Origin: a virus
Lineage: Duplodnaviria; Heunggongvirae; Uroviricota; Caudoviricetes
DNA: 49,166 bases
Virus record (IMG/VR): IMGVR_UViG_2923307698_000008
Direction: 5' to 3' (one strand)
Shown here in pieces: positions 27,001 to 30,000 of the stretch (positions within the stretch are counted from its first letter, which is position 1; the number at the start of each line of letters is the position of its first letter). Made by a program: the position numbers.

Positions 27001-30000
27001 GGTATGCCGTGGTGTGGTTACCTTCCTTTTCATCCAGAAACTGGTCGAGGATTTCAGGCGCAGAAGCACCTGCACCAATCAGCGCCAGAACGGCAGCCGA
27101 CAGGCCGTATTTTATTTTTTCGTTCATGGGGATTTATCGATTTCTAATCCCTTGATATGTTAGGTATATAATCCAACACTCATGGTCGCTCTCATAAACA
27201 TATCCCTTGAGACGCAGCAGATTACAACAAATGAAGCCATATAAATGAACAGTAAAGAAAGTTTGCGCAGAAGATTTTTACAACTAATGACAGAAAACGT
27301 TAAATCAGAGTTACTTCTTCTGATGGCAGATAATAACGAAGCAACAAGCAGCATTCTTGCAGACCCTTACGGTAAGATCTCACATAAAACGCTGGATATT
27401 ATTACCACAACATTAACACCGCTGATGCTTCAACGGCTGAAACATAATATCAACGCATGGGTTAATGAAGAATTAAGTCCTCCCTGCTTATGGGATTCTC
27501 GTTACGCATGTCAGCAAAAAATGCGAATTTTCAACTTACTATCACCAAAGCTCAGGTAGCCATAAAATCCTGCCCTTCATGGCATACAGGATTTCAATGG
27601 AATCACAATGACCAACTCTTGCACAGCTGTATCCCTGACTCCCCGACAACTCAGATTTTCAGTATCTGCTGCTATCTAAAGAGAAAGCGCACAAATGCAA
27701 GGGTCTTTCATCACGTCCTGTTATTGATTGCCTGTGACCTTTTCTTACCTCATGGAACGTTTTTTCAGTTAGAAATATTCATTTTACAACCAGTTCGTAT
27801 TGTTTATTCATCGACTACTCTCCCCGCGCCACCTTACGACGGTCCTCTCTGATTTTGAAATACAGGTTAGTCAGATACGTCAGCAGGCCAAACAGCAGAC
27901 TTCCCAGCACACCTATTGCCACCCACTGGGACGGAGAGACTTTGTCCAGCAGCTGCAGTAACCAGTATCCCGTCCCCACCGCTGACGTGGTGTATGACAC
28001 ACCTGTTGTGATTTTTTCCATCTGATGTATGTCTCCGTCACCGCCGACAGAAAATGAAAGTAAAGAAAAACAAAAAAGCCGCCAGTGTCACCCACTGACG
28101 GCCAACTCCGGGAGCCGTGATTATGGCATTCAGGCTCTGCTAAAAATGCCAGATAACATTCCGGCCTCCCCTGATTCAGGTTATAAATGACACAATATCT
28201 TGACAACACCCGTCACTGTCTGTCAGAAAATATACCGCCAGGCATAAGTATCATGTGAAATCCAACTATCCTTCTGAGCCAGCACCTCTCCACCGAAAGT
28301 CAGTGCTGGCTGTTTTTTTCCTTAATAAAGCATCTGTAACTGAAACAATCCGCATATTGATAATATATTGACAGGCATCATTGCTGTCTGTGAAAAATAA
28401 GTCTCTACAAACATATAAGGCCTTTTAGCCAGCGTCTTCTTTCAGGTCAGTCGCTGGCTCTTTTTTTATTATGCTGCCGGTGCATTTATCTCCAGCACCA
28501 GACTTTCTATCTCAACGCCATACGCTGCATTTTTTGTAACATCCGTCAGCGTCAGCGCATTCAGTCCCAGTGTCAGACTGTCTTTTATAACCTGGAATGC
28601 CGGGCCAGCCACTCCATTCAGTTTCGGAGTAACCGTGGCACTGCCGGCGGTGAACACCAGCTCCAGCGTCTGCCAGTCGTTACCGTAATCGCCGAACTCC
28701 CCCAGCTTCGTGTTTCCGGCTTTCCTGTGATGCATCAGATTCACTCTGCCGTCAGTGGTCTGAGTGAAGTACGACATCAGGAACGGATTACCGGTACCCG
28801 TCATCGCCACACCATCAGGAACGGGAGCATCCGTATACAGATAAATCCCCAGCCCGAACTGATTGTTGGTCAGTGCGCCTGACAGGCGGAACTTACAGGT
28901 CAGTCTGCCGCCCTGTGTCAGCAGGGTAATTGCGTCATCCACCGGATGCGTCAGGGACCAGGTTTTATTGCTCTGCTTGGTGATCTTAAATACACCATCT
29001 GACAACTGAATTCCGCCATCCTTAATGCTCCAGCCCTGCGCAGCAGCCTCTCCGGCTGCCGGCAGCAGGGAGATTGTGCGAACGGACGTATCTGCAGACG
29101 GACCCGATGGCGTGTTGCCGCCGGGCGAGGGTTTAATTTCCGGTGCCTTACCACTGATGAAGGCTGAGGTGCGCCCGGCTGCGTTCAGAATAGCGGTTGC
29201 CAGACGATCCGGAATAATGCTCCTGCGCGCCCATGAACTGAAATGTGTCGGGCGGTTTGATGATACCTGGTTTCCATTCGTTCTCGATGCCGCACCGTAA
29301 TATCCTGATGCCGGAATATCCGGATCTTCTGCCGGCGCGTTAGTGGCGGTATTGACGCCGTTACCGTCTGTCATGAAGGGCACAAAATAAACGCCCTCAC
29401 TCTCCCTGTTTTTATACCCGCCGTACACGGTGTCGTACTGGGTAGCGTATGTATTTTTCCAGTAATACGTCGTGTCACCACAAATCCACGGCACATCTGC
29501 AGCACTGCCACCATGGCACTGCGCGTTAAACACGGAGAGGTCAGCACGAAACTGTGTCAGCATGGCTGTAAACAGCGCAGGTTGCTGTGCGTGGGTGGCG
29601 GCGCTCATGTCAAACTCTCCCTGCATCCAGCACACCGCCAGCAACACATTTTTCGGGTTCTTCTGTAATGCAGCTTTAGTGCGCGCAATCAGGTCCTGAT
29701 ATAACGGTTTACCCACACCCCAGCGTGCCGAATCCTGGCTGGCCCCCGTGTCCGCACTGAATGTCCCCTCAGCGCCCTGGGTGAATGCAGAACCACCACG
29801 ACAGCATGGTACCAGCAGGATCCCCGCGTTATTCGGGATATACGGAAGCAGTTTTTTGGCAATATGTAAGCCCTGGCCGACACAGCCGTACTGCCCTTTG
29901 CTCAGGTCTGCCTTCGGATGATTCAGCGTACTCATATCCTGCACATCATGCAGGCAGTGGTCAGCCGGAATGATGTCGTTATACGTACAACTCTCTCCAC

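Follow-up and report, generated by a model that had tools for sequence, protein, structure and literature searches.

The DNA between the holin gene S and the endolysin gene R of a lambdoid prophage of the Escherichia coli O157 type appears, from its alignment with intact loci, to be the decayed remnant of a two-gene cassette. This cassette would come from a variable slot in the lysis cassettes of lambdoid phages resembling Shiga toxin (Stx) phages, and in the present case only a gene for a 104-aa protein survives of it. The window (the whole stretch of DNA analysed, the 49,166-nt virus record IMGVR_UViG_2923307698_000008 of IMG/VR) holds this Stx-phage-like prophage, which carries no stx and whose late genes lie on the minus strand. 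We propose that the 104-aa gene is the orphan of the cassette, has a promoter of its own that works in the lysogen, is expressed reciprocally with the partner gene and is linked to the C-terminal domain of the partner protein. Taken as one package, we give this proposal a slightly better than even chance; the link between the two proteins, judged by itself, stands well below even. That the open reading frame (ORF) is a genuine protein-coding gene under purifying selection is close to certain.

The spacer measures 687 bp (27128-27814) and has a GC content of 0.39, compared with 0.54 for R, 0.53 for S and 0.506 for the whole window. This agrees with a sequence-only reading of the same DNA, which had described about 690 bp of AT-rich sequence between holin and endolysin with a 104-codon ORF on the opposite strand; the ORF is there as described (Table 1). 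Copies at least 99% identical to the spacer occur in 622 records among 5,426 complete E. coli genomes (about 1 in 9), and the exact sequence is found in prophage Sp4 of O157:H7 Sakai, indicating that the spacer is no chance feature. The window itself is a Sp4-like prophage without the rearrangement associated with the insertion sequence (IS) IS629 that is present in Sakai. A DNA search of the spacer against sequenced phages, distant mode included, returned no match.

Phage records that match the S/R pair of the window number 357, and the S/R neighbourhood was surveyed in 60 of them, sampled evenly. Adjacency of the two genes, which had been taken as the usual state, is indeed the majority arrangement (about 38 of the 60, the 933W type) but not an absolute one, as about 13 of the 60 have a gene between S and R. 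In 933W, phage 434 and prophage PP2 of E. coli E2348/69, the two genes adjoin or overlap. At least five states of the slot are found: empty, DUF1327 gene only (Sp5-like), partner only, pair, and orphan small gene. The spacer had been regarded as a single new insertion; overlooked in this was that the slot holds a known two-gene cassette, apparently decayed in the window.

The 104-aa product matches the PHROG 1853 hidden Markov model significantly (161 bits; E-value in Table 1), residues 1-102 aligning with positions 57-158 of the 159 in the profile and leaving its N-terminal 56 positions uncovered. The homology search that had been recommended for it further yielded 14 homologs of conserved length at 49-79% identity, and the pairwise ratios of nonsynonymous to synonymous substitution rates (dN/dS) between the gene and its homologs range from 0.13 to 0.39. 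Databases already list the gene, both as a PHROG and as a hypothetical protein, and extra genes of this kind are familiar from the lysis regions of lambdoid phages. In the RefSeq version made by the Prokaryotic Genome Annotation Pipeline (PGAP), WP_000138558.1, it is labelled hypothetical, has 90 aa and starts at 27287. Residues 1-14 of the longer form are conserved and the homologs align from residue 1, which places the start at 27245; judged by these alignments, the 90-aa call is probably 14 codons too short. A 120-aa ORF at 27490-27852, which overlaps the 104-aa gene, and a 64-aa minus-strand ORF have no family match and were taken as spurious.

An AlphaFold2 model of the 104-aa protein is a confident five-helix bundle (mean predicted local distance difference test score, pLDDT, 84.7; predicted template modelling score, pTM, 0.74). 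The protein is basic (pI 9.3), has no hydrophobic run of more than 6 residues and carries neither signal peptide nor membrane segment, and is predicted from its sequence to be cytoplasmic. Its family is tiny, with 20 cluster representatives among 1.84 billion, and two scans of a species-representative genome collection found no member. No match to the 104-aa protein was obtained in Pfam, NCBIfam or PADLOC, profile searches of the PDB with the PHROG 1853 family and with PHROG 1085, the family of the partner, were empty, and fold and sequence comparisons of the 104-aa protein gave no pointer to function.

Selection can be followed in relatives of the window type that also lack the partner. Three of them (L062, L063 and L065) have the same architecture at 93.6-95.5% DNA identity, i.e. 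a divergence of 4.5-6.4%. Compared with the window, their ORF differs by 2.2-3.5%, the remnant that follows it by 5.9-7.8% and the upstream region by 7.7-11% (Fisher p 0.018-0.029). The ORF is intact in all three and 2-3 times better conserved than both flanks, its differences fall mostly in third codon positions, and the -10 hexamer is unchanged. These substitution patterns demonstrate that the orphan 104-aa gene is still under purifying selection, the partner-less lineage included. A second partner-less lineage is represented by L067 (66% identity), in which the partner was apparently lost independently of the loss in the window type. The small gene at L009:3447-4323 (71% identity) is still intact, although its surroundings are degraded: the endolysin is truncated, the holin is missing, and IS66 and IS110 elements are close by.

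The partner is a late-strand gene of PHROG 1085, which NCBI labels as "YdfR family" or DUF1327 protein. In its product a C-terminal domain of about 145 aa is conserved, and the N-terminus is exchangeable, consisting of DUF1327 or a coiled coil or lacking altogether; when full-length partner proteins were scanned against PHROGs and Pfam, the sole above-threshold match was DUF1327, and the AlphaFold model of the partner P0035 is poor (pLDDT 45). About 90 further loci of the small gene were compared. Apart from the window type, nearly all sequence types (33-78% identity) have the small gene tail-to-tail with the partner, the 3' ends being 8-30 nt apart or overlapping. The exceptions are L067, which has no partner, and L066 (80% identity), with no partner match and only 143 bp upstream of the gene covered.

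The identities of small gene and partner to those of other loci fall together (33%/36%, 50%/42% and 77%/83%). The pair adjoins holins of PF04971, of PF05106 (L016, L017), of PF16080 (L015) and of a fourth, unclassified type (L076). The 5' end of the small gene faces the next lysis gene, which is R in S21-type cassettes and the holin in L017 and L076, while in L016 an HNH gene intervenes before the holin; the late-strand order in L076 is DUF1327-like gene, partner, reversed small gene, holin, endolysin. Literature searches on ydfR together with holin, and on genes between holin and endolysin, found no description, and as far as these searches show, the convergent pairing with a YdfR-family C-terminal domain across several holin types is undescribed.

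In the window, the partner appears to persist as two vestiges on the minus strand (Table 1). The stub of its first codons begins 3 nt from the holin stop, the corresponding gap in intact loci being 3-4 nt. The trace of its C-terminal domain consists of collinear fragments, among them ...MKGRI in another frame, and evolves 2-3 times faster than the ORF. Nucleotide homology between the window and intact loci breaks at 27561-27567 and returns at the holin. We therefore interpret the 255 bp after the ORF as a probable pseudogene remnant. With the partner reduced to 10 codons and a weak C-terminal trace, the 104-aa gene would be left as an orphan.

Table 1 Features of the lysis region of the window, in order of position.
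Feature	Position	Strand	Evidence or remark
Rz/Rz1	25791-26315	-	
Endolysin R of the signal-arrest-release (SAR) type, 177 aa	26594-27127	-	PF00959, E 7.6e-24; 86-100% identity to R of related loci
R leader; its plus strand is the weak -35 region of the putative ORF promoter	27128-27166	-	Alignments; same leader in the Sp5-like phage L002, without the 104-aa gene
-10 hexamer TATAAT, perfect; putative promoter of the 104-aa gene	27167-27172	+	72 nt upstream of the ATG
104-aa gene, family PHROG 1853, equal to ECs_1097 of Sakai Sp4	27245-27559	+	phrog_1853, E 3.5e-47; homologs; dN/dS; AlphaFold2 model
Decayed trace of the partner C-terminal domain, with stops and frameshifts (putative)	27607-27738	-	tblastn, 36% over 44 aa, E 0.004; weak evidence
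Partner stub, first 10 codons MNKQYELVVK and a stop, DUF1327/YdfR type	27779-27811	-	Same as the N-terminus of the intact partner P0104, MNKQYELVVKGINNY...
Holin S, class II (S21 type), 68 aa	27815-28021	-	PF04971, E 1.3e-32
PasA small RNA, major 85-nt form, with intrinsic terminator at 28277-28319	28235-28319	+	Exact match of the Northern probe; 96% identity to the PasA locus of E2348/69
3' extension of the minor 236-nt form of PasA, to the second terminator at 28425-28467	28320-28468	+	Coordinates of Table S6 (PMC8550237) transferred by alignment; hairpin z -2.68
Esterase, NanS-p type	28469-30319	-	

The perfect TATAAT that the sequence-only reading had seen upstream of the ORF is confirmed, though its best -35 (TTCTAA, at a 19-nt spacer) agrees with the consensus in only 3 of 6 positions. 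The hexamer is conserved in L009 and L005 and reads TACAAT in L010, and another TATAAT is found 47-49 nt from the ATG in L067 and L005. Five lineages retain a -10 that is perfect or nearly so, though not at exactly the same position. The distant lineages (L004:2893-2922; L003, L076, L016/L017, L015) have a GC-rich hairpin (CGCCAGYG...CACTGGCG) 60-70 nt upstream of the small-gene ATG; a T-run follows the hairpin in phage 86, and in L015 the hairpin differs by one G-U change and one compensatory change from T-A to A-T. This hairpin is absent from the window type, where TATAAT stands in its place. The R leader of the window type lacks 10 bp at 27129/27130 (ATATTTATCA, one copy of a GATAAAT direct repeat), next to the endolysin ATG, compared with six related loci aligned; an obvious Shine-Dalgarno sequence is seen in this leader neither in the window type nor in the six.

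These features suggest how the cassette may work. When intact, it would comprise the late-strand partner and a convergent 104-aa gene, which reaches or overlaps the partner with its 3' end and turns its 5' end towards the start of the next lysis gene; of these two, the window would have lost the partner by deletion or decay and retained the 104-aa gene intact. In the lysogen this gene would be transcribed from its own sigma-70 promoter while late transcription stops at tR', and after induction it would be silenced by head-on, Q-antiterminated late transcription. Expression would thus be reciprocal, with the 104-aa protein made in the lysogen and the partner made late. More speculatively, the small, basic, helical protein might act on the C-terminal domain of the partner or on the process in which it takes part, e.g. 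as an inhibitor, and an orphan copy could have an effect in trans on related phages or prophages with the partner.

The sequence-only reading had extended the plus-strand transcript of the ORF through the holin to terminators near 28277-28319. A plus-strand hairpin followed by seven T residues is indeed present there, and a second hairpin, annotated as a terminator in phage 434, lies at 28425-28467; both belong, however, to PasA and not to the ORF unit. PasA is an Hfq-dependent small RNA (sRNA) validated by Northern blotting in enteropathogenic E. coli (EPEC) (Pearl Mizrahi et al. 2021, PMC8550237). Its Northern probe (PMC8550237, Table S6) matches the window exactly at 28286-28310 on the minus strand, and identity to the PasA locus of E2348/69 is 96% over 286 nt. 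The homologs of PasA in enterohaemorrhagic E. coli (EHEC) are EcOnc51 and EcOnc52, the latter in Sp4 (Tree et al. 2014, PMC4104026), and the synteny esterase-PasA-holin-lysozyme is given in a 2026 preprint (10.64898/2026.05.13.724894). That the two hairpins are new sRNAs is ruled out, since they are the published PasA. An Rfam search of 27128-28468 found no family (Rfam 15 has none for PasA), and the probes for PasC and PasD have no match in the window.

The region 28022-28468 is common to phages H-19B, 434 and YYZ-2008; in phage 434, S and R are adjacent and the annotators marked the same three terminators. Prophage PP2 of E2348/69, in which S and R overlap with no insert between them, expresses PasA, indicating that the terminators belong to an independent published sRNA. 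PasA and the 104-aa unit are alike in being plus-strand (anti-late) units of the lysis region. They differ in that PasA is a separate 85-nt Hfq-dependent sRNA between esterase and holin, present in prophages without an S-R insert. On the late strand, an intrinsic terminator at 28077-28103 (11-bp stem, -22.3 kcal/mol, z -3.7) precedes the holin start by 56 nt. The annotation of phage 434 includes this element too, and presumably only Q-modified polymerase reads through it.

The arrangement might instead serve as an antisense or transcriptional-interference device, in which the plus-strand promoter and its RNA oppose leaky late transcription into endolysin or holin in lysogens, or tune lysis timing, the protein being secondary. 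In favour of this, the promoter region sits, in every lineage, in the leader of the next lysis gene (R or the holin, in L016 by way of the HNH gene), the mRNA of the 104-aa gene is fully complementary to the late transcript, and run-on is possible with no terminator after the ORF. We consider it unlikely, because the constraint is at the protein level (the low dN/dS and the third-position bias), the proposed end-point terminators are those of PasA, which is expressed without the unit, and many functional phages with the same S and R do without it. Overlap with the holin is not conserved either. Intact loci have a partner gene of 570-860 nt between ORF and holin, and in most relatives the plus-strand transcript would enter this gene of 190-290 codons and not the holin. 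For L015-L017 and L076, where the holin is upstream of the 5' end of the ORF and its promoter, the transcript runs away from the holin. In our reading the 104-aa unit is not a dedicated antisense regulator of the holin, and the idea of a lysis-timing antisense unit through the holin finds no support.

Similarly unlikely, in our estimate, is that the C-terminal domain of the partner is a harmful effector and the 104-aa protein an immunity protein or antitoxin, kept by lysogens as a neutraliser once the effector had gone. The two genes travel together and diverge in step, the C-terminal domain and the small gene seem to be grafted onto different N-termini as in C-terminal-domain/immunity cassettes, and two apparently independent losses of the partner (window type, L067) left the small gene in place. 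However, the two genes are convergent and form no co-directional operon of the kind expected of type II toxin-antitoxin or effector-immunity pairs, the 104-aa protein lacks a match in PADLOC, Pfam or NCBIfam, the poor model of the partner P0035 yields no toxin-like fold, and the partner is widespread without an adjacent 104-aa gene (P0121, P0104). As partner alone and small gene alone both occur, the pair is not obligate, which weakens a toxin/immunity relationship; an obligate pair of this type was downgraded on account of the partner-only loci. The least probable of these alternatives is that the ORF is a functionless remnant, hitchhiking in a defective prophage and kept by a young clonal lineage. 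The roughly 620 genomes with an at least 99% identical copy would fit a recent spread, the neighbouring partner is clearly decayed, and the prophage has IS insertions in several strains; yet the ORF is intact and 2-3 times better conserved than its flanks, shows third-position bias in the partner-less relatives, and has full-length homologs in inducible Stx2 phages.

The proposal of a reciprocally expressed orphan also has observations against it. The partner genes P0121 and P0104 are common in the order S, partner, 36 bp, R without the small gene (147 blocks of the collection list P0121), the 104-aa gene is also retained where the partner is missing, and the co-divergence of the pair could be due to linkage alone. 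A consensus promoter scan made no call at the TATAAT, which it misses owing to the weak -35. From 27560 to 27988 the plus strand showed no hairpin with a T-run, and hence no intrinsic terminator after the ORF, and the fold of 27550-27640 does not surpass that of shuffled sequences (z -0.26); run-on transcription towards the holin is therefore possible, though nothing requires or conserves it. Finally, our literature searches found no paper that mentions ECs1097 or WP_000138558.

Homologs of the 104-aa protein with 53% identity (tblastn only) are present in phage 86 and in Stx2_12E129, in both of which the gene has the position and opposite orientation seen in the window and converges with a late-strand gene (orf5). 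The Stx2-converting phage 86 (AB255436) resembles the window in that orf6 (BAF34038) encodes a homologous protein of 104 aa and lies between S and R, in opposite orientation and directly upstream of R. It differs in having an intact convergent partner, orf5, of 268 aa, which combines DUF1327 with the PHROG 1085 C-terminal domain, and in carrying the GC-rich hairpin with T-run and a good Shine-Dalgarno sequence upstream of orf6, in contrast to the TATAAT arrangement of the window. On the late strand downstream of orf6, phage 86 (L004 ~2880-2930, against L002 3030-3090) keeps the 3' end of a short DUF1327 gene (CCGCTGGC..TGA) and the R leader. From this alignment it looks as if the C-terminal domain of the partner and orf6 had entered the end of a DUF1327 gene together, in a single insertion. 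YdfR/DUF1327 (PF07041) genes, where they come after S21-type holins, lie in this same slot between S and R, and the window keeps the first 10 codons of one; unlike the 104-aa gene, they are late-strand genes of unrelated sequence, present in the window only as a pseudogene stub.

Lambdoid morons are extra genes expressed from the prophage, such as lambda bor beside the lysis genes; Bor is a secreted lipoprotein, and its gene has its own terminator. The annotations of phages 86 and 434 show a bor-like gene on the opposite strand. The 104-aa gene is moron-like in its deviant composition (GC 0.38-0.39 against 0.53-0.54), its anti-late orientation, its place in the lysis region and its absence from otherwise near-identical phages. 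Cargo gene, the other suggestion made for it, is borne out: it is a conserved coding gene on the opposite strand, of deviant GC, between genes that are adjacent in 933W, 434 and E2348/69 PP2. With regard to a promoter of its own, the TATAAT is perfect and conserved across lineages, with the partial -35 and the missing scan call described above. Unlike Bor, the product has no signal peptide or membrane segment, no terminator was found for its gene, and the gene is tied evolutionarily to a late-strand partner.

Elsewhere in the window, a PerC-family gene at 25012-25326 (minus strand) encodes a protein identical to PchA (ECs_1091) of Sakai Sp4, a regulator of the locus of enterocyte effacement (LEE). 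Matches at the Rfam gathering score, at 30542-30732 (-), 30812-31058 (-), 35783-35957 (-), 44717-44768 (+) and 15533-15649 (+), are STnc100 just upstream of the esterase, three tRNAs, a sok RNA of the hok/sok type, DicF and an ALIL pseudoknot. The ALIL pseudoknot is a marker of an IS3-family element within the structural gene region.

The results bear on annotation in three respects: the 90-aa call is likely too short, the 255 bp after the ORF are best regarded as a probable pseudogene, and the plus-strand terminators are to be credited to PasA. ECs_1097 sits in the pchA-carrying prophage of O157:H7. A bolder view, to which we give a low probability, is that PHROG 1853 and the PHROG 1085 C-terminal domain form an unrecognised convergent module at the entrance of lysis cassettes, beside at least three holin families and reciprocally expressed, that controls lysis or excludes related phages; the copy of the O157 Sp4 type would then be an orphan "guard" acting in trans on Stx phages that carry the partner. 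If the 104-aa protein is indeed expressed in the lysogen and linked to a late protein of the YdfR family, it would be a new component of the lysis or exclusion biology of Stx-type phages, which governs toxin release and phage spread.

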